DNA of 64,000 nucleotides, taken from positions 1 through 64,000 of IMG/VR virus record IMGVR_UViG_3300012173_000004; one strand, given 5' to 3'. Made by a program: the position numbers and the translations under genes. Within the stretch, counting starts at the first letter, position 1. Each line of letters begins with the position of its first letter. Below are positions 10,252 through 30,090 of the stretch, piece after piece. Under the pieces are notes generated by a model. That model did no database searches and had not been told where the DNA came from. It was given only the letters and a program-made list of their open reading frames with translations. Source of the DNA: a virus (lineage: Duplodnaviria; Caudoviricetes).

Positions 10252-11466
10252 ATGTCAATTACGCCAAAAAGAGTTGATATACAAAAGCGTGAACTTCCTA
10301 AGTATACTTTACTTACCAGGGCTGAAGTTGAATTAGCCCGTACGCTGAGCGGTCACCTAGCCACTATTAAAGTTTTCAAAATAGATGGTCCTGAATTAGC
10401 CAGTTACTGGTATGAAGTACCAGGTAGCACTACACCAAGTGACAAGTATTTAGGTATAATGGAGGGTTTAGTAGTCGCGCGTTTTGCTACTGAAGCACTT
10501 GTAAACATAGGGCACAGAGCTATGGCACCCATGCCTGCTGATTATGATACGTTGCTTTCTGAATATGGCATGGCACTGGTTGTTTTTGAAGGTGACACTT
10601 GGCAGCCTGAAACGTTTCCGATAACCCAGAACACACTTCTTTTATCTGGTGGCGCCGATTCAACACACCTCATGTTCAAGCATCTCAGGGGTCAGACCAA
10701 CGCAGCAACTTTGTACCATGGCCAATCCACGTTTAGTACAGGTTTGTGGCCGGAAAACAAAGCTTCATCGAAAATTGTGGAACTTGCACAAAAAGTTTTT
10801 GGCACAACTATAGATCATCGTAAGATGTCGGCCCGATGGAACTGCAAGCTTGAACGTAAGTGGGCTAAAGCTTTTCGTAACTTCATGCTGGTGACTCAGG
10901 CTGCAACCACTTTCCCACGTACACGTATGTGGGTTGGTACTAGTATTGATGATCGTCTCCACGATAGTTTTCCAGACTTTATTGAAGGATTCACCAAAGT
11001 TACTGGCATAGAGATCTGCGTACCCAATATACAGACGGGTCGTCGTACGATTATGGGCGACCTTATCAATCTGTCACAAAAGGTGCATCCTTATATTTAT
11101 GCCTCAACGACGTCCTGCCAGCTACCACGTTATTTAGGTAAGAAGCACTTTTACTGTGGGTCTTGCCATTCCTGTTTGCTTCGTTTGCCTGCTGTTGAGT
11201 TTGCAGGTGACCCCCGTTTCAGTAATTTTAACAAGGAGTTAAAACTAATTCCTCACGAGTACAGTAACAATTACTGTTATCAGGATTATTACAAGCGTAA
11301 GCCTAGTTCCAATGTACTAAAGACGTTTTTTGCTGATTTAGGTGATACGCCTGCCTTCGATGAATTTATTCCGACTCTTCACCATGTTAAGGCAGAGTGG
11401 CCAGAATATAGTCTTAAGAAGATACTTTCATTATTCCAGTTTACTCGCCTAATGTCTTATAGTTAG
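10252..11466 (+). CDS. queC: QueC-family PP-loop ATPase (7-cyano-7-deazaguanine synthase-like) with ~120-aa N-terminal extension
   Basis: LLSGGADS PP-loop, YHGQ, RN, and SC-x11-CGSCHSCLLR zinc motif. Confidence 0.8.
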   Translation: MSITPKRVDIQKRELPKYTLLTRAEVELARTLSGHLATIKVFKIDGPELASYWYEVPGSTTPSDKYLGIMEGLVVARFATEALVNIGHRAMAPMPADYDTLLSEYGMALVVFEGDTWQPETFPITQNTLLLSGGADSTHLMFKHLRGQTNAATLYHGQSTFSTGLWPENKASSKIVELAQKVFGTTIDHRKMSARWNCKLERKWAKAFRNFMLVTQAATTFPRTRMWVGTSIDDRLHDSFPDFIEGFTKVTGIEICVPNIQTGRRTIMGDLINLSQKVHPYIYASTTSCQLPRYLGKKHFYCGSCHSCLLRLPAVEFAGDPRFSNFNKELKLIPHEYSNNYCYQDYYKRKPSSNVLKTFFADLGDTPAFDEFIPTLHHVKAEWPEYSLKKILSLFQFTRLMSYS

Positions 11467-13263: not shown

Positions 13264-14226
13264 GTGGTAGATATGGGTCCAGATCTTGCATTGTTGCAAA
13301 AAGCGTTAGCCGAGACTGACATCTCGGCGTTGTTCAAGATCCCTGAGATTGATCAGGTGATGGTTCAGCTGTTTGATTTCTTGAATCCGTTGCGGCAAAA
13401 CTTGCGGCGGGTTCCGGGTTCAGGGGATAGCTACTTGGTGTACACTCGTACGCCGGGCACAACTCAGGCTGTGGACATCGACGATGTCGATACTATCACT
13501 GAGCAGGTGGGAACTTACGGGGAAGTTACTTTTCCGTACAGAACCATTGCCACTCAGGGTCGTATCAGTCGGCGTGTTCAAAAGACCGGTCGTTCTATTG
13601 CGGACCTTATGCGTGAAGAGCTCGAGGCGAAAGCTGGCGAGATTCGTAATGCTGAGGATTATCGCATGTTTTGGGGTAACTACCCCACGGTCAATGCCAA
13701 ACAGTTCAATGGCCTTGCGTATCAGTTAAACGCTAATACCGGCCAAATCGTGACTGCAGGTACCGACGGTACTTCTGGTAATGATTTGACGACCGCGAAG
13801 ATGGATCAGGTAATCGATACCAATATTGGTAATCCTGGTTTGATCGTCACGTCGCGTCTTGGCCGTCGGAAGATCAATGCCTTGCTGCAAGCGCAGCAAC
13901 GGTTTGTTGATCGGACGGAAATCGCTGGTGGATTCCGGGTTATTTCGTACAATGATATTCCTATTGTTGCAACGACTAATATTCCGGATGTTCTCACGCG
14001 GCATCCGTCTACAGGCACGATTACGGCTTTGACCGGTGGTTCAACCTCGGCTTTGTTCGTTATCGATCTGCAGGACGTGTTTATGAGTGTCTTGACTGAG
14101 TTGACGGTTATGCCGTTGGCGAAGGTCTCTTCGCAGTATGACTTGTTCGACATCTTTATGGATGAAGCTCTCGTCGTACGTGATTTCCGGCACTTGTCGA
14201 TGTTGTCCGGCATCAGAGCTGTCTAA
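13264..14226 (+). CDS. Major capsid protein
   Basis: Follows protease/scaffold; strong SD (GGGAGG); 320 aa; QFNGL motif; followed by a terminator. Confidence 0.85.
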   Translation: MVDMGPDLALLQKALAETDISALFKIPEIDQVMVQLFDFLNPLRQNLRRVPGSGDSYLVYTRTPGTTQAVDIDDVDTITEQVGTYGEVTFPYRTIATQGRISRRVQKTGRSIADLMREELEAKAGEIRNAEDYRMFWGNYPTVNAKQFNGLAYQLNANTGQIVTAGTDGTSGNDLTTAKMDQVIDTNIGNPGLIVTSRLGRRKINALLQAQQRFVDRTEIAGGFRVISYNDIPIVATTNIPDVLTRHPSTGTITALTGGSTSALFVIDLQDVFMSVLTELTVMPLAKVSSQYDLFDIFMDEALVVRDFRHLSMLSGIRAV

Positions 14227-14247
14227 GCTTAGTGGGGCGGCGGTTGT

Positions 14248-14290
14248 AGAGGGAGCACTACCTAGTGTGGTGCTCCCTCTTTGTGGTTTT
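14248..14290 (+). terminator. Intrinsic terminator after the capsid gene
   Basis: AGAGGGAGCACTAC/GTGGTGCTCCCTCT stem followed by a T-rich tract. Confidence 0.75.
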
Positions 14291-16185: not shown

Positions 16186-17781
16186 ATGGCTAACAACCTC
16201 ATTTGCGGGTTTCTAAAACTACGCAATGGCATTTTACGCGGTAGTAATCTTTATAGGGTCTTGCGTAACATGCAGGATTACTGCGATGATGTTTTCATCG
16301 TAGATGATGCCAGCTTTGATGGTACCTATGAGTATCTCAAAAAACACATTGTTCCCGAAGATCGTATTCTTCGTGTACCCCTAGATCAACATGATTTCGC
16401 CCAAGAGTTACACTGGAAACAGCAGCTCATTGAACGCGTCCACACTGATGGTCCCTATGAATATATCCTGTGGATGGACGATGATGAGGTCTTGGATGCA
16501 AAAGGAACTGCTGGAATACGTGACTTCTGCCGTAACAATCTTAGTAGTAAGCTTGATGTGTGGTCCTTTCATTATACACAGGTGTGGCGGAATACTGAAT
16601 ACGCCCGAGTTGATGAGGGTTTTGACGATGGCTGGTTTTATAAGCTCTGGCGGTACTTCCCAGATCTCAGTTTCAGTGTTTCACATGGCACTCACAAAGC
16701 CCAATTTCCGAGTCAAATACACAATAAGTTAACTTCGGGCCGTGCTGGCCAGGCTCCGTTTGAGGTCATCCACTACGGAAATGCAGGCATTAATCTTCGC
16801 ATGAAGTGTATTCAATACTATGGGGGTCTTGGCGGAGTAGATCGTCACTTACATTTTGAGAAAGGAATTTTCCGCAAGGTATCGCAGGACATCTTCCCAG
16901 ATGGCGCAGAATTGATTCCCGGTGGTAAACCTGAACCATTTACATCTGAACAATGTGAACGTATATTATCTCTAAAAAATCTGAAGCATCTGGAAAAGAC
17001 TTTTGCTGTTATCTTGCCCACCTACAACAGAGCCAGTACGCTCCCCAGGGCTCTAGATTCCTTGTTGGCACAGACTTACGATAAGTGGGTTTGTTTTGTT
17101 CTTGATGATGGCTCAACAGATAACACGGCTGATACTGTTAATGCTTATGTTGAAAAAGATCCTCGTATCTTTTATTTAAGGTATCATGAAAATCGTGGCG
17201 GCGTAGCAATGAACGAAATTGGTATGGAAATAGCCGTCAATACTTGTGAATGGTGGACACGCCTGGGTTCAGATGATTGGTTTATTTCCGATAAACTAGA
17301 ACTTGATGCCAAAGCTTTTGAGACTGCTGAAGCCGTTTACGGGCCTTTTGTGGTACACCGTAATGGTGCTTTTAATGAAGTTGGCAATATGCCTTGCCCT
17401 TCTGACATTGTTCTTCCTGGATTCTTGAAGCAGGGCTTTTTTGCTTCCTGGGCCAACTGTGCTGTTAAGTCCTCTGTACTAGTTCGTGTAAAGTCTAAGT
17501 TTGGTTCTTATTGTGATCCAGAGTTGCAGAACATGGAAGATCGCCTCTTTAACTTCAGGGTTGCCAAGTTGGTTTCTTGGGTGTGGCGTGGGACTTGTAA
17601 TGAGGAACTTATTATCAATCCAAGTTTGGAAGCCTGCAAAGTCATCATGAGCAGGCCAACTCAAATTAAGCCTGATGGTGTTTGGAATGTTAATCAGATA
17701 GGTGCTTCAGCTAATAGTGACGTTTACAATCGAGATAGTGGAGTTACAACTCGTATCATTGAAAAAGAAAAGGATCTTTAA
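16186..17781 (+). CDS. Two-domain GT2 (GT-A) glycosyltransferase
   Basis: VDDASFDGT and WMDDDEV in the N-domain; ILPTYNR, LDDGSTD and LGSDD in the C-domain. Confidence 0.9.
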   Translation: MANNLICGFLKLRNGILRGSNLYRVLRNMQDYCDDVFIVDDASFDGTYEYLKKHIVPEDRILRVPLDQHDFAQELHWKQQLIERVHTDGPYEYILWMDDDEVLDAKGTAGIRDFCRNNLSSKLDVWSFHYTQVWRNTEYARVDEGFDDGWFYKLWRYFPDLSFSVSHGTHKAQFPSQIHNKLTSGRAGQAPFEVIHYGNAGINLRMKCIQYYGGLGGVDRHLHFEKGIFRKVSQDIFPDGAELIPGGKPEPFTSEQCERILSLKNLKHLEKTFAVILPTYNRASTLPRALDSLLAQTYDKWVCFVLDDGSTDNTADTVNAYVEKDPRIFYLRYHENRGGVAMNEIGMEIAVNTCEWWTRLGSDDWFISDKLELDAKAFETAEAVYGPFVVHRNGAFNEVGNMPCPSDIVLPGFLKQGFFASWANCAVKSSVLVRVKSKFGSYCDPELQNMEDRLFNFRVAKLVSWVWRGTCNEELIINPSLEACKVIMSRPTQIKPDGVWNVNQIGASANSDVYNRDSGVTTRIIEKEKDL

Positions 17782-18446
17782 TGGATTACGAAGAACGGAC
17801 ACGTATCTCTTGGGCAAGGGCAGCCACCTTTCCTAGTAATAAGGAAGAGGTTTATCCCGATCACAAGATCGTACAAGAGTTTGATCTTATCCATGGCAAG
17901 ACAGTTTTAGAATACGGCTGCGGTGCGGGATCAGACGCTATCAGTTATCTTAGACGTGGCAATCAGGTGGTGGCTACTGATATAGTGGCTGCTAATATTG
18001 AAAGAACAAAGTCTAACATTGCCCTGTACAATTTGTCTCGTGCTGCTAGCGTTATTAAACTTGATGTTTCACACCCTCTTCCTTTTGGCAATGAACTTTT
18101 TGATGTTGTTAGCAGCCATGGCGTTATTCATCACATCAAAGAAGGACCTAAGGTTGTGGAAGAGTTTTACCGCGTACTCAAGCATGGGGGTTTTTGTTAT
18201 CTCATGCTTTATACAGAGTACATGTATGACTACTTCTTAGAAACCATTAATAATCTTGTTGAGACTCGAGGTATTTCAAAGGAAGAAGCCTTCTGTTGGT
18301 GTTCGGATGGAGAAGGAGCACCTTATGCCGTTCCCTATAGCGAAGAAGAAGGTAACAGCATGCTTAAAGCAGCTGGCTTCAGGGTAGTGATTAGTACCTT
18401 GTGGTTAAATGACCATTTTAGAACGTTCAAAGCTATTAAAGATTAG
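17781..18446 (+). CDS. Class I SAM-dependent methyltransferase
   Basis: VLEYGCGAG, FDVVSSHGVIHH and YRVLKHGG motifs. Confidence 0.9.
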   Translation: MDYEERTRISWARAATFPSNKEEVYPDHKIVQEFDLIHGKTVLEYGCGAGSDAISYLRRGNQVVATDIVAANIERTKSNIALYNLSRAASVIKLDVSHPLPFGNELFDVVSSHGVIHHIKEGPKVVEEFYRVLKHGGFCYLMLYTEYMYDYFLETINNLVETRGISKEEAFCWCSDGEGAPYAVPYSEEEGNSMLKAAGFRVVISTLWLNDHFRTFKAIKD

Positions 18447-18455
18447 GAGAACAAT

Positions 18456-19271
18456 ATGGACTGGCATCTATCGCGTATCCCGAAAAAAGCGTATTTTTAT
18501 TGGGGTACTGAACTGTTTCCCTGGATACGCTATGTCTCATTAGAGACTTTCGTCAAGCATCATCCTGATTGGGAAGTGTTTCTTTATGTTAAACCCTCCT
18601 TGGATCGTGTACCTGAAGATACTGACAAATCCGATAACTGCTGGAGCAAAGTAGAAGCTCTTGGAGTTAAGATCGTGGAACTTGATATTGAAAAGCACCT
18701 GGGTGTTGACTTCCCAGCTAAGTACATTACGATTTACGCTGACATTTTCCGTTACATTGTTCTCGGTCAAACAGGTGGTTTCTACGCGGATACGGATATG
18801 CTTTTTTTTCGTGCTCTGGAACAGAGCCCCTTCAATAATCCTGGTTACGAAGGCAAAGATGTTTTCATGCTTCCGCCGCCATATCATCATTTCCTTTGGG
18901 GAGTAAAGGACGCCAGTTGGTGGAAAAAGGTTCTTGATTACCAAGTTAATCATTTACCCCACGAAGGCAGCCGTTTTCTTGACACTACAGCATGTACATG
19001 TTACATCCCACAGTCATATAATGACAGAATTCAAATTCTACCCATGACGACTTGTGAAGAGAATTTCAACGCTAACGGTCCTGTTGATGTAAACGCCATT
19101 GCACTCAATTGGCATGGCTCTGGCACTTATGGTAAGTACCGCGCCGTTAATGAACAGAACTACATGGAATCAGATCATCCATTGGCCGCCTGTGTACGTT
19201 TCTGTTTGACTGGTGCAATGGGTCCGGCTTCTGGCATAGGCTCATTTCAGTGGATTAATAGAGGCGAGTAA
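18456..19271 (+). CDS. GT32-like DXD glycosyltransferase
   Basis: IPKKAYFYW, HPDWEV and ADIFRY..L...GGFYADTD motifs. Confidence 0.85.
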   Translation: MDWHLSRIPKKAYFYWGTELFPWIRYVSLETFVKHHPDWEVFLYVKPSLDRVPEDTDKSDNCWSKVEALGVKIVELDIEKHLGVDFPAKYITIYADIFRYIVLGQTGGFYADTDMLFFRALEQSPFNNPGYEGKDVFMLPPPYHHFLWGVKDASWWKKVLDYQVNHLPHEGSRFLDTTACTCYIPQSYNDRIQILPMTTCEENFNANGPVDVNAIALNWHGSGTYGKYRAVNEQNYMESDHPLAACVRFCLTGAMGPASGIGSFQWINRGE

Positions 19272-19274
19272 ACG

Positions 19275-20339
19275 GTGCGCATTCTGATCACAGGTTCCTC
19301 AGGCTTGATCGGTTCTGAGGCAGTTGAATACTTTGATAAATTTCCGGGAGTTGAAATCATCGGTATCGATAACAACTCCCGGAAAGAGTTTTTTGGTGAA
19401 GAGGGTGACACTTCCTGGAATCTTAAGCGCTTACAGGAAATCACTAGTAATTTTAAATCAGCGGACATGGACATTAGAGATCGTGGAAAGATCTTTGATT
19501 TGTTTGTTAATAAGAAGTTTGATTTAATTTTACACTTTGCAGCTCAGCCTGCCCACGATTATTCTTTCAAATATCCTCTGAGAGACTTTGATGTTAACTG
19601 TAACGGCACGGTTAACCTGCTTGAAGCAACTCGGGTACATTGTCCTAAGGCCACTTTTATATACACATCAACCAGTAAGGTTTACGGTGATTCTGTTAAT
19701 GAAAAACCTATGGTCGAATTAGAAAAACGGTATGAGTATAGTGACCCTCTTGATTGGTTGGGCATTTCTGAAAAGCAACGCATTGATCAAAATATGCATA
19801 GTGTCTTTGGGGCTTCTAAGACTGCTGCCGATATCATGGTACAGGAATACGGCAAGTACTTTGGGTTGTATACTGCTTGTTTGAGGGGTGCATGCCTCAC
19901 AGGAGGCAAGCATTCAGGTGTAGAACTTCATGGCTATCTTTCATATCTCGTTAAGTGTGTTTTAGAACAACGTGAATACCAAGTGTATGGTTATAAAGGT
20001 AAACAGGTCAGAGATAACATTCACAGTTATGATGTTGTGCACGCCTGTCTTATGATTTATGAATACGGCCGCACGCAGGAACGTTGTGGTGAAGTTTATA
20101 ACCTAGGTTCTGGTAGAAATAATAGCGTGTCAGTTCTTGAAGCTTTTGATATTGTGGAAGCCATGACAGGCATGAAGCCCATCTATAAGATGCATGAGGG
20201 TAATCGTACTGGTGATCATATCATCTTCATTGCAGATATTACTAAGTTTCAACAACATTACCGCACGTGGGTACCTGTTTATAATCTTGAACGTATTTTT
20301 GAAGATATCATTAATGGACATAGAGCACGTAGCAAATGA
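19275..20339 (+). CDS. NAD-dependent sugar epimerase/dehydratase (CDP-paratose 2-epimerase-like)
   Basis: ITGSSGLIG, AAQPAHD, TSTSKVYGD and GKQVRDNIH motifs. Confidence 0.88.
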   Translation: MRILITGSSGLIGSEAVEYFDKFPGVEIIGIDNNSRKEFFGEEGDTSWNLKRLQEITSNFKSADMDIRDRGKIFDLFVNKKFDLILHFAAQPAHDYSFKYPLRDFDVNCNGTVNLLEATRVHCPKATFIYTSTSKVYGDSVNEKPMVELEKRYEYSDPLDWLGISEKQRIDQNMHSVFGASKTAADIMVQEYGKYFGLYTACLRGACLTGGKHSGVELHGYLSYLVKCVLEQREYQVYGYKGKQVRDNIHSYDVVHACLMIYEYGRTQERCGEVYNLGSGRNNSVSVLEAFDIVEAMTGMKPIYKMHEGNRTGDHIIFIADITKFQQHYRTWVPVYNLERIFEDIINGHRARSK

Positions 20340-21301
20340 GAGTCGTTTGGATCAGTTGGCCTGGCGAAGGGGAACATGATGTCTTTATTGCCTGTCGTCA
20401 AGCTGGGATAGATATAAAACACTTTGCGATTGCTCAAGGTCACTTGTTTGGTTCAGCAATGGAAGTGGAATTTATTAGTATTGGGGATATAGCCAATGTT
20501 TGCAATAATACACCCGCGGATCTTTACATACTCCGTTACCCCCAACAAAATTGGACACTGCCACATGACATGTCCAAAGTGGTTTATTGGGCGTCTGAAC
20601 AAGGTCCTACTCGTCCCTATGTAGAGGCTACCATAGGTCGTTTTCAGAACGTGGCTGTAAATAATCAAGTAGACGTGGCTTACTTCAAGGCTCAGTATCC
20701 TGGTAAGCGTATCTTTTATTTACCCTTTGGTGGGTACAAGCAAGTTCCTCATGTGGCCAATGATGATGCCCATGATTTTATAGTCACGGCGAATTGTCAC
20801 TATGCTTGTCGTTGTGAAAGCAGTCTGAGACGTTTGAGTGTTGAAAGAATGGTTATACCTCTGCTTAAAGATTACGATATTACAATCTATGGCGGTGGCT
20901 CTGATATCCATGCTTGGGATCAGATTGAAGTAGCTATTTCACGATACGCTGGTAGATTTCATCACTGGCAGTATGGGGAAATTCTTAAACGTGGTCGTAT
21001 GTATGTGGGCATCACTTGGAATTGGCAGCATGGTGGTTACGGTATCCAACTAGCTCGTGCACTGGCGGCAGGTATTCCTGTTATGTGGTCGTACACCGCA
21101 GGCATGCACATGGATGGTCTTGTATCAGGTGAACATCTGGCTGTTTCTAATGATGCTACTCAAACTGTGAGTTTAGCTGACTATTACACTTCACACCCTA
21201 AAGAACTTGTTGAGTTAGGCAACCGCGGCCAAGAGTGGTTCAATAATAACTGGCGCTGGGATCTTAATATTCGTCGTTTAGTAGAAGAAGTAAATTCCTA
21301 G
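20336..21301 (+). CDS. GT-B glycosyltransferase (CgeB/GT4-like)
   Basis: C-terminal ALAAGIPV..GLVSGEH..ELGNRGQE..W pattern; position in the cluster. Confidence 0.7.
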   Translation: MRVVWISWPGEGEHDVFIACRQAGIDIKHFAIAQGHLFGSAMEVEFISIGDIANVCNNTPADLYILRYPQQNWTLPHDMSKVVYWASEQGPTRPYVEATIGRFQNVAVNNQVDVAYFKAQYPGKRIFYLPFGGYKQVPHVANDDAHDFIVTANCHYACRCESSLRRLSVERMVIPLLKDYDITIYGGGSDIHAWDQIEVAISRYAGRFHHWQYGEILKRGRMYVGITWNWQHGGYGIQLARALAAGIPVMWSYTAGMHMDGLVSGEHLAVSNDATQTVSLADYYTSHPKELVELGNRGQEWFNNNWRWDLNIRRLVEEVNS

Positions 21302-21302
21302 T

Positions 21303-21899
21303 ATGGATACCACACACATACCTGTTCTTCTTCTACTTCCAGTTTTGCTCTCTGTACGGAGGGCCTTAGAACTCGGCTCAGGTGAATTAAGTACTTTTGT
21401 TATTTCAAATCCTGACTATTATCCTCTGCTAGAGCACTTTATCACGTGTGAAAATGCTGCAGAAGACTACATGCCTCAGCTTGCAACTCACTTACGTCCT
21501 GGTCATCAGGCAATAAGGTCATCTCAGAAGATGGTTCACATAGTAGCAGGCCTGGATTTAAGTGGTTATGATTTAATTTTTATTGATGATTCTACAGGAT
21601 TGGAAGATAGAGTTCAAACAATTTCAAATATTACAAGTCGTGTAGGTTCACATTCTGTAATTGCGGTTCATGATTTTGAACACATTGAGTATCAAAATGC
21701 AGTTCAGGGCGTATTCAATAAGTTCATATTTGATTTTGCGCTACCTTACACAGGTATTTTGTGGCAGGAAGCATCCTTAGATGTTTCTAAGTTTCAGGAG
21801 TATAATGTATTAATGTGCCATCTCTATACATCTTGTGGCGTGACCCCCGCAGAATATTACCATAACTACCTAAAGAGGGTTTTAAAGTGGATGACATAG
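21303..21899 (+). CDS. Methyltransferase-like protein
   Basis: ALELGSG, YDLIFID and VIAVHD motifs. Confidence 0.65.
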   Translation: MDTTHIPVLLLLPVLLSVRRALELGSGELSTFVISNPDYYPLLEHFITCENAAEDYMPQLATHLRPGHQAIRSSQKMVHIVAGLDLSGYDLIFIDDSTGLEDRVQTISNITSRVGSHSVIAVHDFEHIEYQNAVQGVFNKFIFDFALPYTGILWQEASLDVSKFQEYNVLMCHLYTSCGVTPAEYYHNYLKRVLKWMT

Positions 21900-22489
21900 A
21901 AGCTTTGGTTGTGTCTTGGTATTCACGCCCAGATATGTGGGAAGCTAACTCTCAGACCTATCCCAAATCCCCTGGTTACATTGACTGTAGGCTATTGGAT
22001 GTTCAGTCAATGGTAGTGAATAAAGATGTACTTAATGTAGGTTGCTGCTTTCCCAGTGATGAGTTACAGTTCAGTCATGATGCACGAAAATGGGTTGCCA
22101 TTGATTTTTCATCTACAATTGTGAGTAGATGCCAGGCAACTATTCAAAGACCCAACCTTGAATTTGTGCATATGAACATGCGTGATTTGAAGTTTCCATC
22201 CTTATCTTTTGATACCGTACTAGACTTTTCATCAGGGGATCATGTCTGTGAAGAAGACTACAGGGCTACCCTTACTGAGATTTACAGGGTATTACGTCCT
22301 AGCGGGCATTTCATAGTCACCTATGCGAATCTTAATGTTTTTAAGATAAAGGATAACTATGGCGATTTTGGTTATTGGCGTTGTGCCTCTCCTGAAGAAA
22401 TGCGTGAGATGGTTGAGGTCGCTGGCTTCAAAGTAATCAGGGAAGAGGATCCCACTGCTGACAGAGCAGGTCTCGTTGCATTGAAATAA
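21887..22489 (+). CDS. Class I SAM-dependent methyltransferase
   Basis: VLNVGC, AIDFS, FDTVLD and EIYRVLRPSG motifs. Confidence 0.85.
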   Translation: MDDIEALVVSWYSRPDMWEANSQTYPKSPGYIDCRLLDVQSMVVNKDVLNVGCCFPSDELQFSHDARKWVAIDFSSTIVSRCQATIQRPNLEFVHMNMRDLKFPSLSFDTVLDFSSGDHVCEEDYRATLTEIYRVLRPSGHFIVTYANLNVFKIKDNYGDFGYWRCASPEEMREMVEVAGFKVIREEDPTADRAGLVALK

Positions 22490-22553
22490 GGAATGTGCAG
22501 TATCACCACTACTTTTTTTAAGATTAGTCAATAAGGAATGCAATTCGCAAGAT

Positions 22554-23855
22554 GTGATCTTGATGGAAAAAACTATTGTAATTCACGGGCTGGGCTATGT
22601 TGGACTAACAGCTGCAATACACTATGCAGAAGCTGGTTGGCGAGTCATAGGCTACGATCCTGATGCACGCACAGTGTTAGGTATCAATGCAGGCACACCA
22701 CGCGCTCAGGATTTTCTAGAGTATCTCCAGACAGACGTAAAACGCTTAGTTGATAGTGGTATGTTGCATGCTACCAGTGTACTTAACAGTGAGGTCTTGA
22801 GTTGTCCAGTACATTCTGTCGCTGTTCCTACTGAGAAGGTAGGCGAACCATTTGATGATATTATTATAACCGCAGTTACTACGCTTGTCCAAGCTGTTAA
22901 TGCTCCTAAACCTTTGATTATTATTGAGAGCACGCTTTCACCCGGGACAGTTGATCGTATTCTTGCAGCCGGTGGCAAAATGGCAGGTCTTGATTTTAAT
23001 TTAGCGGTTTGTCCGCGGCGTGATTGGTTTGCTGATCGTAAAAAGAATCTTGCCACTCTGCCTCGTGTGGTTGGTGGTGTAACTGAAGAATGTACTCAGC
23101 GAGCCATGCGGTTACTTGAACAGGTGACGTCTCGAGATTTGTTATTGCCGACTACTTATTCGGTTGCTGAACTATGTAAAGCACTTGAAAATGCCTTATT
23201 ACATGTTCAGGTAATGTTCGCACAGGAAGTTTCAGTTCTTTTGCATGATAAAAATGTGAGTGAAGCACTGCGTCTAGCTGGCACTCACTGGCGATTATCT
23301 CAATTGCATTTAGGTATTGGCACTGGTGGCAGGTGTGTACCTTTAGGTACCAAATATCTGGTAAATGCCATGAAGCAGAATGGTTATGATTCGCCCATTG
23401 GTGGTGCTGCCATACGTTTGGATAAGAATATGCGCGTGGTTATCGCTGAACAAGTTGCCCGCCACTTGGAAGGCTATGAGGAAAAAAGTTTAATACTAGG
23501 AATTGGTTATAGGCCTGATTTCAAAGATGCAGGCTTATCTCCAGGTCTTGCAGTTGTTAAACACCTACGCACTAGTAGGATTCAAGTGTCACTGTGTGAT
23601 CCACTTTGGACCCCAGGTGAATTGGAAGTTTTGTCTCCTGATACACCTATAGCTTTTCAGCCCAATGCCATGTTCAAGGTTGTAATACTAGCAACGGCGC
23701 ACACTGCCTTTCTAAATTTTCCACTAGATCCTAGTTTATGGGGTAGGGGTCAATACGTACTTGATTGTACTGGCGCTTGGTCTAAGCATCGTGAACTATT
23801 TAAAGTCTACGGTGTTGACTATCATGTTATTGGAGAACCTGATTGGCTTACATAG
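22554..23855 (+). CDS. Nucleotide-sugar 6-dehydrogenase (WecC/WbpA-like)
   Basis: GLGYVG, VPT, IESTLSPGT, AELCKALEN and catalytic GGRC. Confidence 0.88.
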   Translation: MILMEKTIVIHGLGYVGLTAAIHYAEAGWRVIGYDPDARTVLGINAGTPRAQDFLEYLQTDVKRLVDSGMLHATSVLNSEVLSCPVHSVAVPTEKVGEPFDDIIITAVTTLVQAVNAPKPLIIIESTLSPGTVDRILAAGGKMAGLDFNLAVCPRRDWFADRKKNLATLPRVVGGVTEECTQRAMRLLEQVTSRDLLLPTTYSVAELCKALENALLHVQVMFAQEVSVLLHDKNVSEALRLAGTHWRLSQLHLGIGTGGRCVPLGTKYLVNAMKQNGYDSPIGGAAIRLDKNMRVVIAEQVARHLEGYEEKSLILGIGYRPDFKDAGLSPGLAVVKHLRTSRIQVSLCDPLWTPGELEVLSPDTPIAFQPNAMFKVVILATAHTAFLNFPLDPSLWGRGQYVLDCTGAWSKHRELFKVYGVDYHVIGEPDWLT

Positions 23856-23862
23856 AGGGAAC

Positions 23863-24798
23863 ATGCGAATCTTAATAACAGGCTCGATGGGTTTCATAGG
23901 TTCAGTTTTAACTCAACGAGCTCTTGATAATGGTCATAGTATAATTGCTCTTGACAATGGAGATAGGGGATTAAACAAAGTCAAGAGATCGCAGATGCAT
24001 TTAATGCTTGCAAAGAGGGATTGTCGTGGAGGAATTTCAGATATCCTTGAACGTTATCCCTGTGATGCAATTGTTCATTTAGCTGCTGGAACAGGTAGTT
24101 TAAGTCGACCTTATGAAGAGCTTATAGATTTGAATATCAACATGACACAGACTCTTTATAGGGACGCATGTGCTTATAAGGTACCTGCGTTTGTGTTTCC
24201 GATGACATCGTTGTCGCTGGATTCAGATCTCAAAGATGCCCCCTATGTTAAGAGTAAGCAGGACGGCATGGATTGGTTGCTTGGGCAGAAGGGTGCAACT
24301 CGAGTTATCCCTTTCATGTTTTGTAATCAAGCAGGTGGCTACAAAGGATTGACTGAGTATCGAAGAAAAGAAGTTCATATCGGGCCGACGATGTTATATT
24401 GCTATTTAAAGAAGGTACCCTTTGTCATCAATGGCAATGATTACAACACTCCTGACGGGACCCCAGCACGAGATTACGTTAATGTTGTTAATACGGCGGA
24501 TTTCATTCTCAATGAAATTCTTTCAAACATTATTGGCATCAAGGGACCGTATACAAGTCCAATCTTTTTGGGTACTGGTGAAATAACCACAACATTGCAA
24601 TTGGTTGAATATTTTAGAGAAGTAATCGGACCTCTCGAAGTTCAGATCGGTCCTCGGCGAGCCTTTGATACTGGGTTCATTCAGTGCACTTCTTCTGCCC
24701 TCAAAGACTTTTGTGGGGATCGGTTGATTTACGCGAAGAAGACTTACACTGAGGAATGGACTACTCTCTTAGAATTACTGTTACCAAGTCATCCTTGA
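23863..24798 (+). CDS. NAD-dependent epimerase (GalE-like)
   Basis: ITGSMGFIG, YVKSK, GNDYNTPDGTPARDY and GPRRAFD motifs. Confidence 0.85.
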   Translation: MRILITGSMGFIGSVLTQRALDNGHSIIALDNGDRGLNKVKRSQMHLMLAKRDCRGGISDILERYPCDAIVHLAAGTGSLSRPYEELIDLNINMTQTLYRDACAYKVPAFVFPMTSLSLDSDLKDAPYVKSKQDGMDWLLGQKGATRVIPFMFCNQAGGYKGLTEYRRKEVHIGPTMLYCYLKKVPFVINGNDYNTPDGTPARDYVNVVNTADFILNEILSNIIGIKGPYTSPIFLGTGEITTTLQLVEYFREVIGPLEVQIGPRRAFDTGFIQCTSSALKDFCGDRLIYAKKTYTEEWTTLLELLLPSHP

Positions 24799-24800
24799 AT

Positions 24801-25901
24801 ATGTTTAAAGTACTTATACTAGCAGGCACTCGGCCTGAAGTTATTAAACAGGCCCCCGTCTATAAGGCTCTTCAAGACTATGCCTCTGTAGCAGCAATTT
24901 TTTGTACTTCAGGTCAACATGATGTTTTAGCTGAGCAGGCTCTCATGGCATTTGGTATCATGCCTGAATGTCGTGTTACACTTCAACGTGAAGCAGGTTC
25001 AGACTTAAGTGATCTCACCAGTGAATTAGTGTTTAGTCTTAGTAGAATGTTGGATAAGCAACAGCCTGATTTAGTTGTTGTTCATGGTGATACAACAACT
25101 GCGCTCTGTGGAGCTTTAGCGGCTTTTTATAAACACATTCCCGTTGCCCATGTTGAAGCAGGACTACGTACAGCTCGTTTTGAAAATCCTTTTCCCGAAG
25201 AAATGAACCGGCGTCTGATTGCACAGATGGCAAAATTACATTTTGCGCCTACGAATAGGGCGCTAGCAAATTTGAAGAGTGAGGGCCTAGATCAGCAATA
25301 TATGTACTGTACTGGTAATACGATTGTTGATGCTCTTCATAATTTTATACTACCAACTCCAGTACATAAGATTCAATTCTTCAATACCACCAGCCAACAC
25401 CTACTGGTAACTTGCCATAGGCGAGAATCATGGCAGCACATTCGTACTCTTTGTGGCATTGTCACTAACATCGTAGATGCCAATTCTAATGTTCAGTGTG
25501 TATGGGTTACGCATCCCAATCCTGTGGTATCAGATCCTGTATTCACACATTTCAAGCACCATCCTCAGGTACGAACTCTACCACCGATGCTTTATACAGA
25601 CTTTGTGCATTTGATGGCCAATAGTGATGTTATCCTTACTGATTCAGGGGGCATCATTGAAGAAGCTAGCGTCTTGGGCAAAGCATTAGTCATTATGCGT
25701 GAAGTAACGGAACGTCCAGAGGCATTGGAACTACCTAATGTGGCTCTAGTAGGATATGATTTTGATAAGTTATTCCAACAGGTGCAAACCTGGCTAGCTC
25801 ATCCTGTAAATGGTACATCTAGTAATGTGTTCGGGGATGGTATGGCAGGTAAAAGAATTGCACAGTGTATCGTCAATTTTTTAGGGGGAAATAGGCTATG
25901 A
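24801..25901 (+). CDS. wecB: UDP-GlcNAc 2-epimerase (non-hydrolysing)
   Basis: GTRPEVIK, SGQH, HGDTTT, HVEAGLR, PFPEEMNR, HRRES and TDSGG motifs. Confidence 0.95.
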   Translation: MFKVLILAGTRPEVIKQAPVYKALQDYASVAAIFCTSGQHDVLAEQALMAFGIMPECRVTLQREAGSDLSDLTSELVFSLSRMLDKQQPDLVVVHGDTTTALCGALAAFYKHIPVAHVEAGLRTARFENPFPEEMNRRLIAQMAKLHFAPTNRALANLKSEGLDQQYMYCTGNTIVDALHNFILPTPVHKIQFFNTTSQHLLVTCHRRESWQHIRTLCGIVTNIVDANSNVQCVWVTHPNPVVSDPVFTHFKHHPQVRTLPPMLYTDFVHLMANSDVILTDSGGIIEEASVLGKALVIMREVTERPEALELPNVALVGYDFDKLFQQVQTWLAHPVNGTSSNVFGDGMAGKRIAQCIVNFLGGNRL

Positions 25902-28330
25902 TAAAGTGGAGTGTTGTTTTTTCAACTGAGAGCAAACTGCCCGTTTTCACTCAGAGTCTATCCCAGCTTATTGAATCTGTGGATTCAAAACGTACTGAAT
26001 TTCTTTTAACTTCAGTAAAGCCCATTGATCCCTTGTATCGTGAGATCTTTGATACTTCTTGCCGCCAGGCTAAGATTACCAGCAAAGTACATGAGAGCAT
26101 TGATATCAACACTGTTATAGCTGACACCCAAGGTGAATACGTAGCAGTTGTTCGTGATCATGTACTGGTCCCTAAAAACTTCCTATCACGCTTGACCTTT
26201 TGTATGGATAATTTCGAGAGAACCTATAATCAGGGTCCTATTGGAATTGTCGGCCCCATAACCAATGGTGGTTCTGGTCCTCAGCGTATTGGCATGCAAG
26301 CTAATTTACATCCCCACGACGTCAATGGGATTCAGAAGAAATTGGAAGAGCAGTTGCAGGGGCAACATCCTTGGCAATCAGCTGCAACGTTGGAAAGTTT
26401 TTGTTTCATGTTTCGGCGTGACGCTTACAATCAAGTAGGTGCATTTGATTTTACGGTGGAACCAGACTTCGCTCTGGTTGAATGGATAACTAGAGCAATG
26501 CGTTTCGGCTGGAAGGCAGCTGCTGCTTCTGATGTTTATGTCTACCGTTCTGATGAAGGCCTTCCTTTGATGGATTGGAATCGCGTCTACAAGTCATTAC
26601 CTGAAGGCAATCGCATCCCCCAAAAGCTTGCGTTCCTGCATAGGATAAAGCTTTATGATGATTTTGAAAGAGATATCTTTATTGAGTCATTGGGGCATTC
26701 CCTAGCTGTTGGCGACGCCGTCTTCATACTTGATGATAATTCACTTGTCAAGATGGGCTTATACCTTAAAGAAGAACGCCCTGATATTTGGAATCATCCT
26801 AAATTGGCCAAGTACCAAAAGTATTCACGTCCTCTCGATGAGAAGAGAGACTGGAATGAGTTAATGGATTGGGCAGAAAAGGCAGGTATGAATTGGGCCT
26901 TTGCAGTTGACGGTGATGAAGTTGTTGAAGATAAGGTTACCCGCGACTATCTTGAAAGTCTCATGCACCCTGTTAATCCACAGGTCATGGGTTACTTTGT
27001 ACACCCCTACTATTTTTGGGATAGCTGTTCTAAGTGGCGTATGGATGGTATTTGGGGTGAAACGCATGATTTACGCTTGATCCGTATCAATCCAGGTCAA
27101 CGCATTGGTGTTGAAGGTGTTCTAGCTACACAATGCGGTTACGTGTCACAATACCCCGGCGAATGTATTCGGACTTCCAGCATCCGTCTAAAGGTTTACG
27201 GCAGCGTCTTTGAGGCCCAACGTGAGCGCGTTAAGATCTTACACGAAAAGAATGTACGAGGTGCAACGCCCAATCAATTTAACTACCTTGTAAGCACTTC
27301 CAACTGTAGTCTCTACCCCTGGCAGGAAGCTAACACTGTTAGCGTCTACGCGCCTGTTAACAGGGGAGGTGTTTTACTTTATGAATGGCTAGATGCTGTC
27401 GTACCTTTTGCGGATGAGGTAGTTATTGGTGATAGTGGCCTATCAGCAGAAGATAAAAAACTTCTAACTGATGTTTGGGGTGTTCGTGTTGTTCCTATTT
27501 GGGATAAGCCGGAAGATTTCATGGCCAAAGGCTTTGCGGAATCACGGAATAAGGTTATCAAGGAATGTCGCCAGAGTTACATCCTCCAGTTAGATATTGA
27601 TGAAAAGATAGAAGACTGGCACAAGGTACGACGAATGATGGATCTGCCAACACACCCAGCTTGGGATTTCCAGGTACTTAATTATCAGAGACCGCCAACA
27701 CAGCCCGTGTTGACTAGTACTACTCGGCTTTTTCAGAACGCACCGGGTGTACATTATTGGGGTTATTTACATGAAACTATTGATAACGCTGTTCATGAGC
27801 TTGGCTGGCGTGTAGGCCAATCGCCGACTAAGGTACTACACTTTGGTTTCGCCATCACACCACCTGCAGAAATGTTCAAGAAGATGCAAAAATACCTTGA
27901 ACTAAACCTGCGCCAAATGGAAGACTTTCCGGATGACCCTAGAGCTTACTACAATTTGGCCTTGCACTTGGTGGAAGATGGGCTAGTGGAAGATGCCATT
28001 AGGGTTTTGAAGATTGCTGTGCCTCTCTCAGGACGTTTTCCCTTGCCCATTATTGAATTGGCAAAACTTTATCTTTTTACGTCACGCGCCCATTTTAATG
28101 GCGCCCTACGTATGCTACAACCTAGCCACGCAAGTCATGCAACCTTAGCTCAAACTTGCAAAGACCTGGAACAGGTTACGTCCAATATGAATCACGTCCC
28201 AGCAGCTCCGGGTCATTGTCTATCTTTCTTTACAACGCAGCCCAAGAATATGGAGCGGGTAAGATTGCATTGTGATAATATGGAAAGACACATTGAACAG
28301 GTCAGAGCCGGCCAGTTAAAGAAGAAGTAA
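25898..28330 (+). CDS. Multi-domain GT2 glycosyltransferase with C-terminal TPRs
   Basis: GIVGPITN domain; second domain with VDGDE; third domain with FAESRN..LDIDE..GYLHE..LHFG; PDDPRAYYNLA TPR. Confidence 0.85.
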   Translation: MIKWSVVFSTESKLPVFTQSLSQLIESVDSKRTEFLLTSVKPIDPLYREIFDTSCRQAKITSKVHESIDINTVIADTQGEYVAVVRDHVLVPKNFLSRLTFCMDNFERTYNQGPIGIVGPITNGGSGPQRIGMQANLHPHDVNGIQKKLEEQLQGQHPWQSAATLESFCFMFRRDAYNQVGAFDFTVEPDFALVEWITRAMRFGWKAAAASDVYVYRSDEGLPLMDWNRVYKSLPEGNRIPQKLAFLHRIKLYDDFERDIFIESLGHSLAVGDAVFILDDNSLVKMGLYLKEERPDIWNHPKLAKYQKYSRPLDEKRDWNELMDWAEKAGMNWAFAVDGDEVVEDKVTRDYLESLMHPVNPQVMGYFVHPYYFWDSCSKWRMDGIWGETHDLRLIRINPGQRIGVEGVLATQCGYVSQYPGECIRTSSIRLKVYGSVFEAQRERVKILHEKNVRGATPNQFNYLVSTSNCSLYPWQEANTVSVYAPVNRGGVLLYEWLDAVVPFADEVVIGDSGLSAEDKKLLTDVWGVRVVPIWDKPEDFMAKGFAESRNKVIKECRQSYILQLDIDEKIEDWHKVRRMMDLPTHPAWDFQVLNYQRPPTQPVLTSTTRLFQNAPGVHYWGYLHETIDNAVHELGWRVGQSPTKVLHFGFAITPPAEMFKKMQKYLELNLRQMEDFPDDPRAYYNLALHLVEDGLVEDAIRVLKIAVPLSGRFPLPIIELAKLYLFTSRAHFNGALRMLQPSHASHATLAQTCKDLEQVTSNMNHVPAAPGHCLSFFTTQPKNMERVRLHCDNMERHIEQVRAGQLKKK

Positions 28331-29214: not shown

Positions 29215-29442
29215 ATGGCAGCTGTAAAATTCGTACCCTGGCGCTGTGGCAGCTGTCACCACGTACTCGGCTTAAGGTATTCTAATGGAACCTTGGCTGT
29301 GAAGTACAAAGATTTGGTTGCGTGGGTCACAGGTACCTATCGTACGGTTTGTCGTTATTGTAAAACGACAAATGAGATTGAAACACAATCACGACTTGAA
29401 GAGTTTTTAAAAGATGAAGGGGAGGTGAAGTTGAGTGTCTAA
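29215..29442 (+). CDS. Com-like zinc-finger protein
   Basis: RCGSCHHVLG...CRYCKTTN, as in Mu Com. Confidence 0.6.
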   Translation: MAAVKFVPWRCGSCHHVLGLRYSNGTLAVKYKDLVAWVTGTYRTVCRYCKTTNEIETQSRLEEFLKDEGEVKLSV

Positions 29443-29986: not shown

Positions 29987-30044
29987 GCTGCTTCTGATCT
30001 AAAAGTGGGAGAGGCTCTAGAAGCCCAACATGGAAATGTAATCG

Positions 30045-30090
30045 AAGCAAGTCTCCGGTATCAATGGCTGGAGACTTGCTTTATTTTTAT
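30045..30090 (+). terminator. Intrinsic terminator after the tail tube gene
   Basis: AAGCAAGTCTCCGG/CTGGAGACTTGCTT stem followed by TATTTTTAT. Confidence 0.75.

Follow-up and report, generated by a model that had tools for sequence, protein, structure and literature searches.

The 64,000-nucleotide stretch analysed here, referred to below as the window, covers positions 1-64,000 of a tailed-phage record of 103,043 bp in IMG/VR (IMGVR_UViG_3300012173_000004), which is rated complete by CheckV. Between the genes for head closure and tail completion it carries an island of glycan genes (positions 16186-28330) that ends in a gene for a fused 810-aa glycosyltransferase, here termed the core enzyme. 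The island probably serves the late, cytoplasmic glycosylation of a virion protein of the tail module. This reading is carried by what was observed directly: which genes are present, how their domains are arranged, their synteny and conservation, and the lack of genes for membrane proteins and for a hydroxymethylase. Judged by family-profile matches, the core enzyme belongs by descent with the GmaR/SunS-type enzymes, in which a GT2 glycosyltransferase (GT) domain is joined to tetratricopeptide repeats (TPR), and this kinship together with its TPR-like tail points to a protein or peptide acceptor. Compared across relatives, the island appears to be a conserved core of the protein-glycosyltransferase type with a swappable tailoring cassette, and the window phage has the largest tailoring set among the relatives sampled.

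The core enzyme consists of a generic GT2 domain with a degenerate metal motif (domain 1, approximately residues 1-240), a second domain with DDNS and D-G-D-E motifs (domain 2, approximately 245-475), a GmaR/SunS-type domain with an invariant DxDE motif (domain 3, approximately 480-655; D566/D568/E569) and a TPR-like helical tail at residues 656-809 of the AlphaFold 2 (AF2) model. Domains 2 and 3 retain invariant acidic metal-binding motifs. In an alignment of 18 sequences (A1), D566, D568, E569, R550, N551, H625, E626 and H648 are invariant. The family profile matched GmaR over positions 487-712 (E = 1.6e-25; residues 11-202 of the 204-aa GT domain chain) and, among PDB sequences, SunS/ThuS at E-values of 4e-19 to 4e-18, while positions 669-745 matched consensus TPR proteins, including the TPRs of OGT. 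The family-invariant motifs of domain 3 (DxD(E), RN, HE, HyGY and the nucleotide-binding motif) all align with GmaR/SunS. In GmaR the GT domain likewise precedes the TPR, flagellin is glycosylated, and the TPR has been proposed to recognise flagellin (PMC9638930).

The AF2 model has a predicted local distance difference test score (pLDDT) of 89.8 and a predicted template-modelling (TM) score of 0.85, and shows three Rossmann-like GT-A domains followed by the helical repeat tail. The top Foldseek matches of the whole model were K4 chondroitin polymerase (K4CP), heparosan synthase and LARGE1 (E = 4e-14) with TM-scores of 0.24-0.32; since these scores are low, only individual domains superpose on the tandem GT-A polymerases. 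The C-terminal part matched SunS/ThuS at E = 1e-12 with a TM-score by target of 0.62. Further matches included collagen galactosyltransferase, mimivirus R699 and Listeria RmlT.

Proteins of the same architecture are numerous. A word-index search returned 19 proteins of ~800 aa, and an exhaustive profile search of 1.84 billion representatives returned more than 100 clusters at 50% identity that span the full profile in one stretch. The nearest relatives, P0002 and P0003, are 62-63% identical to the core enzyme. No match was obtained by tblastn of the 810-aa enzyme against 50,697 deposited phage records, mycobacteriophages included. A search of 185,579 prokaryote species, each represented by one genome, found no relative, so there is no hint of a role in prophages or lysogenic conversion.

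Relatives of the window phage were gathered from IMG/VR by searches with the enzyme and tail-tube alignments. The core enzyme is present in all 14 sampled lineages sharing this tail-tube family, and in 13 of them it lies immediately upstream of the Neck1/tail-completion gene. In six lineages it stands alone at the neck site. One of these, L002, has the closest major capsid protein (MCP) found (62% identity), yet the ten shell genes are absent from it. A second capsid group, with an MCP of PF25209 and unrelated connector genes, shares the core enzyme, the tail-completion gene and the tube; its tubes are 37-42% identical to that of the window, as close as those of relatives with MCPs 35-45% identical. 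Because the core enzyme is common to lineages whose head module has been exchanged, it travels with the tail module. In more distant siphoviruses (L015-L019), this place in the neck is taken by a 230-aa protein that consists of a single domain related to domain 3.

These comparisons alter two parts of the original prediction. It had treated the 12-kb island as a unit and proposed checking whether relatives keep it at the same position; only the 810-aa enzyme is conserved there, and ten of the eleven genes form a variable shell. It had also proposed a glycan on the capsid, neck or tail. Virion glycosylation is the best-supported reading, given the type of core enzyme, the neck position and the lack of membrane machinery, but the three sites are not equally likely, as the enzyme follows the tail module.

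In the fourteenth lineage, represented by two large records (L026/L027; G001, 173 kb, and G002, 241 kb), the core enzyme is located at the end of the tail gene string, and the tube has a 20-aa insertion. Both records are from one sample, and in the region examined neither their open reading frame (ORF) maps nor their blastp figures differ; a single phage may have been assembled twice, or a concatemer may be involved.

Among the sampled relatives, the same kind of island was found only in L010, a 68.5-kb contig, with eight shared genes and three private to each phage. L010 lacks orthologues of the 271-aa GT32-like protein, the 354-aa short-chain dehydrogenase/reductase (SDR) and the 200-aa methyltransferase. 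The divergence of the island between the two phages is similar to that of the structural genes, and the guanine-cytosine (GC) content of the island is the same as that of the rest of the genome, with no compositional anomaly; the island is therefore not a recent import.

The slot preceding the core enzyme is occupied, in the second capsid group, by MTase_11, MTase_24 and GT4 genes, or by Maf/MptE-like, radical SAM/SPASM, MTase_24 and GT4 genes. The accessory GT-B and MTase_24 genes were considered as orthologues across the two capsid groups and rejected as non-orthologous; the sets are analogous, not co-inherited. Maf/MptE-like genes (PF01973, below cut-off) precede the core enzyme at L009:4366-5986 and L031:1565-2284, with a radical SAM/SPASM gene also in L009, and these slot genes are reminiscent, by analogy, of flagellin nonulosonic-acid glycosylation loci.

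The dual GT2 glycosyltransferase, the first gene of the island, has orthologues in L010 (57% identity), L042 (70%), L044 and L045 (~50%) and L046 (42%). A metagenome scan with this protein showed that a cassette of dual GT2, methyltransferase, dehydrogenase and WecB genes also occurs in other contexts. In L044 and L046, a dual GT2, dehydrogenase and WecB cassette lies outside any recognisable neck position. The 82-kb metagenome contig L045 bears a different glycan island (L045:9965-19366), which adjoins an SNF2 helicase gene and is not in a recognisable structural module. There the dual GT2 of the cassette carries an additional fused domain (775 aa in total), and its companions include an SDR, an asparagine synthase that may serve uronamide formation, a GT25 and a GT2-TPR enzyme of 361 aa.

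The island itself consists of 11 plus-strand ORFs whose neighbours abut or overlap by a few bases, the sole intergenic gap being 64 nt (22490-22553). Families were assigned by Pfam and NCBIfam hidden Markov models (HMMs) and by PDB sequence search, as listed in Table 1. A run of eleven glycan genes at the neck site is far beyond chance. The N-terminal domain of the dual GT2 protein, of the Glyco_tranf_2_4 type, is related to domain 2 of the core enzyme (hmmsearch with the A1 profile), and its C-terminal domain is a classical GT2; a TuaG-like GT2 match was among the HMM results for the island. The 198-aa protein scored below the PF13578 cut-off of 26.3 bits and weakly matched the MTase_24 protein of L009 (E = 0.006). 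For the 433-aa dehydrogenase, the nearest structures were 4r16 (118 bits) and Cap5O (84 bits), and the best equivalogs were UDP-ManNAc dehydrogenases at 134 and 110 bits, far under their cut-offs of 750 and 459. The start of the GalE-like gene was corrected from 23761 to the ATG at 23863, which is preceded by an AGAGGG ribosome-binding site; its product is 80% identical to the L010 orthologue. The WecB start was likewise corrected, to the ATG at 24801. WecB is rare in deposited phages, a few cyanophages providing the convincing examples.

Most of the gene calls of the original prediction were upheld. ORFs, HMMs and flanking genes agree on 11 co-oriented, mostly abutting glycan genes between the head-closure and tail-completion genes; HMM and PDB searches confirmed the four glycosyltransferases (dual GT2, GT32-like, GT-B and the multi-GT enzyme with TPR) and bore out the WecB, WecC-like, GalE-like and paratose/tyvelose-epimerase-like assignments. 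Of the three methyltransferase-like genes it named, two are clear class I enzymes and the third, of 198 aa, is probable only. Its remark that no flippase, Wzy or GtrAB-type membrane gene is visible can be extended to the whole 103-kb genome: a hydropathy scan of the 147 predicted proteins found no polytopic membrane protein apart from hydrophobic stretches of the tape measure, so no flippase, Wzy, WecA or GtrAB-type component is encoded. The description of the system as self-sufficient was overstated. Host UDP-N-acetylglucosamine (UDP-GlcNAc), other host nucleoside diphosphate (NDP)-hexoses and S-adenosylmethionine (SAM) are needed, and no GlmS/GlmM/GlmU-type gene was found among the proteins scanned.

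Table 1 Genes of the island and of the flanking neck and tail region, in window coordinates.
Feature	Position	Strand	Basis
Major capsid protein (MCP)	13264..14226	+	PF17236, PF05065
Head-tail adaptor (gp6-like), N-terminal extension ~95 aa	14949..15845	+	phrog_442, E 9e-12; weak PF05135
Putative head-closure protein, 109 aa	15845..16174	+	position alone
Dual GT2 glycosyltransferase, 531 aa	16186..17781	+	PF13704 + PF00535
Class I SAM methyltransferase, 221 aa	17781..18446	+	PF08241, 69 bits
GT32-like DXD glycosyltransferase, 271 aa	18456..19271	+	PF04488, 31.7 bits (cut-off 23)
Extended SDR, CDP-tyvelose 2-epimerase-like, 354 aa	19275..20339	+	PF01370; 9rl0 132 bits, 1orr 128 bits
GT-B fold glycosyltransferase, 321 aa	20336..21301	+	PF13524, 38 bits (cut-off 25)
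Probable methyltransferase (MTase_24-like Rossmann protein), 198 aa	21303..21899	+	PF13578, 17.5 bits; ELGSG motif
Class I SAM methyltransferase, 200 aa	21887..22489	+	PF08241, 56 bits
NDP-sugar 6-dehydrogenase, UDP-ManNAc dehydrogenase-like (WecC/Cap5O-like), 433 aa	22554..23855	+	TIGR03026, 213.5 bits (cut-off 189.8)
GalE-like 4-epimerase-type SDR, 311 aa	23863..24798	+	PF01370; GalE structures
WecB, non-hydrolysing UDP-GlcNAc 2-epimerase	24801..25901	+	TIGR00236 equivalog, 339.7 bits (cut-off 210)
Core enzyme, 810 aa, three GT-A domains + TPR-like tail	25898..28330	+	PDB profile, AF2, Foldseek, alignment A1, synteny
Neck1/tail-completion protein, 147 aa	28349..28792	+	orthologues match phrog_5 (E 4e-6 to 9e-9); synteny
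Putative tail terminator, 130 aa	28785..29177	+	one orthologue weakly matches phrog_78 (E 0.007); position
Zinc-ribbon-like ORF, 75 aa, two CxxC pairs	29215..29442	+	sequence; orthologues
Tail tube protein, 183 aa	29435..29986	+	phrog_117; AF2 + Foldseek; alignment A4

Strong hairpin and T-run terminators are located right after the MCP gene (14248-14280, 14-bp stem) and right after the tube gene (30044-30082, 16-bp stem). Within the island, no terminator-like hairpin has a stem longer than 10 pairs, and promoter-like sites did not exceed the shuffle count; a putative phage-specific promoter-like motif is absent from the structural module. Since the hairpins bracket the neck genes and the island and none lies inside, the arrangement suits a predicted co-transcription of the neck genes, the island and the genes up to the tube as a single unit. 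One contig from an RNA library ends at 14242, near the post-MCP terminator.

From these data we infer the timing, acceptor, linkage, glycan composition and benefit of glycosylation as follows. The neck-to-tube transcript would be made late, and the enzymes would act in the cytoplasm. The TPR tail of the core enzyme would dock on a tail-module protein, domain 3 would attach the first sugar, with a Ser/Thr O-linkage the more likely chemistry, and domains 1 and 2 would extend the chain. WecB and the WecC-like dehydrogenase would convert host UDP-GlcNAc to UDP-N-acetylmannosamine (UDP-ManNAc) and then to UDP-N-acetylmannosaminuronic acid (UDP-ManNAcA), and the GalE-like and tyvelose-epimerase-like SDRs could supply further epimers. 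The dual GT2, GT32-like and GT-B enzymes, contributing four more GT domains for a total of seven, would add residues, and two or three methyltransferases would cap sugars, giving a larger glycan that is probably acidic and methylated. The particle might benefit by shielding, by stability or by altered stickiness.

Since the core enzyme is inherited with the tail module, the acceptor is most probably a protein of that module. The tail tube is the leading candidate because it is abundant, is co-inherited with the enzyme and has an exposed Ser/Thr-rich loop; its choice is the weakest step of the model. The AF2 model and alignment A4 place this loop at approximately residues 88-103, after the only helix of the protein, and its Ser/Thr content is highest in the two phages with a large island. 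A Gly-x-Thr sequon on virion proteins was also considered and was rejected for this phage: the observed/expected ratio of 1.36 in the virion module shows no specific enrichment beside 1.28 for the island and 1.26 for the remaining genome.

Several observations weigh against the proposed modification of a virion protein of the tail module. In the tube, the Ser/Thr loop is only loosely conserved, with few Ser/Thr residues in L034 and L026, and Ser/Thr-rich C-terminal tails of the mycobacteriophage kind are absent from the MCP, which ends in ...SGIRAV, and from the tube, which ends in ...VRQKQ. The metal-binding motif of domain 1 is degenerate. A single-sequence search with the 810-aa enzyme gave no match, the link to GmaR/SunS being at the profile level only. 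The RNA evidence is weak: one metatranscriptome library yielded contigs on the MCP gene, parts of the island and the tube gene, for which DNA carry-over is possible; these contigs are compatible with transcription and are no proof of its level or timing, and parts of the region that lack RNA contigs carry no weight either way. The virion glycan, its acceptor and the time of expression are predicted here from genes alone. WecB/WecC and GT2 enzymes of the TuaG kind typically belong to the synthesis of cell-envelope polymers, and soluble glycosyltransferases can act on lipid-linked or wall-polymer intermediates of the host with no membrane protein from the phage.

The last two points bear on the alternative that the soluble enzymes remodel a host envelope glycan (teichuronic or teichoic acid, a polymer resembling enterobacterial common antigen, or capsule) from the cytoplasmic side with the aid of host flippases, either to prevent superinfection or to stop progeny from adhering to debris. 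The fold match to Listeria RmlT, a cytoplasmic wall-teichoic-acid rhamnosyltransferase, is in line with such a role, as is the cassette found away from the neck in L044 and L046. Envelope remodelling is nevertheless unlikely. The conserved core is of the GmaR/SunS type with a TPR tail, which argues for a protein acceptor; most relatives have the core enzyme only, without genes for donor synthesis; no membrane protein is encoded and no homologue was found in the prokaryote genomes; and the core gene keeps its place in the neck of the structural operon in nearly all lineages. A protein acceptor could also lie outside the virion, such as host flagellin, pilin, an S-layer or defence protein, or a non-structural phage protein, in which case the modification would mask receptors or disable a host function late in infection. 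GmaR, the closest characterised relative, acts on flagellin, SunS acts on a secreted peptide, and the TPR tail implies a protein or peptide partner without naming which. Such a target is quite improbable, as the enzyme has been inherited with the tail-completion and tube genes across head-module exchange, its gene is embedded between neck genes without signals of its own, and a host-directed role has no obvious need for the neck position.

Two further alternatives concern the genome and the particle itself. Phage glycosyltransferases that place diverse glycans on DNA are known, according to the account of Pyle et al. 2024 given in PMC12619734, and the island enzymes could decorate modified bases against restriction in a phage with heavy nucleotide metabolism (ribonucleotide reductase, dCMP deaminase, ThyX, FolE, QueC and a radical SAM enzyme). 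This is very unlikely for an enzyme with a TPR tail, homologous to protein glycosyltransferases and conserved at the neck. No ThyA-family hydroxymethylase (PF00303) was matched in the genome, where ThyX is the only type of thymidylate synthase, and a control search detected it in 10 of 14 known genomes. The base-modification genes are of the 7-deazaguanine type and lie 50-65 kb from the island; they encode FolE, a QueE-like radical SAM enzyme and a QueC that is canonical (190 bits). With no match in the genome to the TGT/DpdA family (PF01702), the set resembles a 7-deazaguanine pathway that has no recognisable transglycosylase. Any modification of the DNA is more likely of this type and separate from the island. 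The loci are window 10252-11466 and G000 79414-80082, 81931-82689 and 91101-91805, and a second, longer QueC-like protein is encoded inside the head module. It is also conceivable, with a very small probability, that the 810-aa protein is itself a virion component, a non-enzymatic neck or tail decoration that binds glycans by its GT- or lectin-like domains. Its gene is among the neck genes, where large multi-domain proteins are sometimes neck appendages, and the catalytic motif of domain 1 is degenerate. The invariance of DxDE, HE, RN and the other GmaR/SunS core motifs in all 18 sequences speaks against this, and co-located genes for donor synthesis and methylation are sensible only with catalysis.

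If a tail-module protein is indeed glycosylated, the closest known system by function is, by analogy, virion glycosylation in mycobacteriophages, the only phages in which, to our knowledge, it has been demonstrated. Giant viruses also encode nucleotide-sugar synthesis and glycosyltransferases for their own particle, as in the fibrils of Mimivirus, and we know of no other viruses in which nucleotide sugars are made for particle decoration. They resemble the window phage in combining donor synthesis with glycosyltransferases, and differ in being viruses of eukaryotes with other enzymes and sugars. In mycobacteriophages the capsid and tube are glycosylated by phage-encoded glycosyltransferases (Freeman et al. 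2023, as described in PMC12619734 and PMC11600133). According to these descriptions, the mycobacteriophages (Cluster O, e.g. Corndog; Cluster F1, e.g. Che8) are, like the window phage, siphoviruses with phage-encoded glycosyltransferases and a methyltransferase; theirs is an O-methyltransferase, and the glycans are on Ser/Thr-rich C-terminal tails of the capsid and tail-tube subunits. The window enzymes have no detectable homology to this system (the tblastn search with the 810-aa enzyme was empty, and the dual GT2 protein has no mycobacteriophage match), and the window phage, a freshwater-sediment phage with 43% GC that is known from its genes alone, has no such C-terminal tails and adds nucleotide-sugar genes (WecB, the dehydrogenase and two SDRs).

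Among individual enzymes, GmaR of Listeria monocytogenes (PDB 22ao), the beta-O-GlcNAc transferase of flagellin, resembles the core enzyme in the order of GT-A and TPR, and both its substrate and the candidate tube acceptor are subunits of helical polymers. The phage enzyme differs in having two more GT-A domains upstream of the one that GmaR has, and in lacking the anti-repressor domain of GmaR. SunS/ThuS (PDB 7msn, 7msp and 7msk) share a GT-A domain joined to a helical, TPR-like peptide-binding domain, and SunS is encoded by the SPbeta prophage of B. subtilis. These enzymes differ in forming an S-linkage to a cysteine of a small secreted peptide, in having a single GT domain and in not being encoded in a structural operon. 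K4CP (2z86), Pasteurella heparosan synthase (8vh7) and LARGE1 have tandem GT-A domains in one chain, as does the core enzyme, and one donor of K4CP is a uronic acid, as predicted for the window phage. Their products are free or lipid- or protein-anchored polysaccharides, and they have no TPR domain.

The interest of the island rests on the conserved core with a variable shell, on the breadth of the family and on the size of its tailoring set. Should the proposed glycosylation be correct, virion glycosylation would be common outside actinophages, would rely there on another family of enzymes, akin to the glycosyltransferases of flagellin and glycocins, and could include phage-made acidic and methylated sugars. 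It would matter for how stable the particle is, how it adsorbs, whether host defences or grazers recognise it and how phage surfaces can be engineered, and would offer a compact, soluble protein-glycosylation toolkit. A more general proposal, advanced tentatively and at somewhat less than even chances, is that a widespread uncultured siphovirus lineage obligatorily glycosylates its tube or neck by means of one fused three-domain enzyme, as a phage counterpart of flagellin glycosylation, and that the slot before this enzyme is a hot spot for the swapping of glycan-tailoring cassettes, which may extend to complete nucleotide-sugar pathways such as that of the window phage. So far, none of the lineage of fused three-domain enzymes defined by the >100 clusters has been found in isolated phages. 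Related phages would then differ in virion "glycotype" as bacteria do in serotype. The layout of a core plus a variable shell provides a testable model of virion glycan diversification.

The genome has a GC content of 43% and is of freshwater-sediment origin; many freshwater-sediment metagenome runs hold the window stretch almost in full. Nearly every gene of the window is on the plus strand, and its left part is a siphovirus late region in the order small and large terminase, portal, MuF-like 882-aa protein, protease-scaffold fusion, MCP and adaptor. After the island follow the 147-aa and 130-aa genes, the 75-aa zinc-ribbon ORF and the 183-aa tube gene; downstream of the tube gene are chaperones with an overlapping second frame and a 1351-aa tape measure. 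No tRNA genes were found within the window. Megablast of the 14-32 kb region against deposited phages gave no match, and the large terminase (TerL) and MCP have only remote matches among them, hence no cultured relative is recognised. The adaptor protein likewise gave no match when used as a query against viral contigs. Orthologues of the putative head-closure protein, which has no HMM match, lie at the corresponding position in L002 and L010. PDB profile searches with the neck proteins of 147 aa and 130 aa gave no match. The AF2 model of the tube (pLDDT 80.7) matched the solved tail tubes of Mystique, Douge and YSD1 by Foldseek. The zinc-ribbon-like ORF slightly overlaps the tube gene and is kept at the same place in L005, L007, L010, L012 and L026.

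In the early/middle region, a NADAR-domain protein, an ATP-dependent DNA ligase and an RNA ligase are encoded at G000 67202-67792, 71049-71993 and 77640-78767, respectively. A family A DNA polymerase of 852 aa (G000 98693-101251) has an N-terminal domain of the uracil-DNA-glycosylase superfamily before its 3'-5' exonuclease domain.

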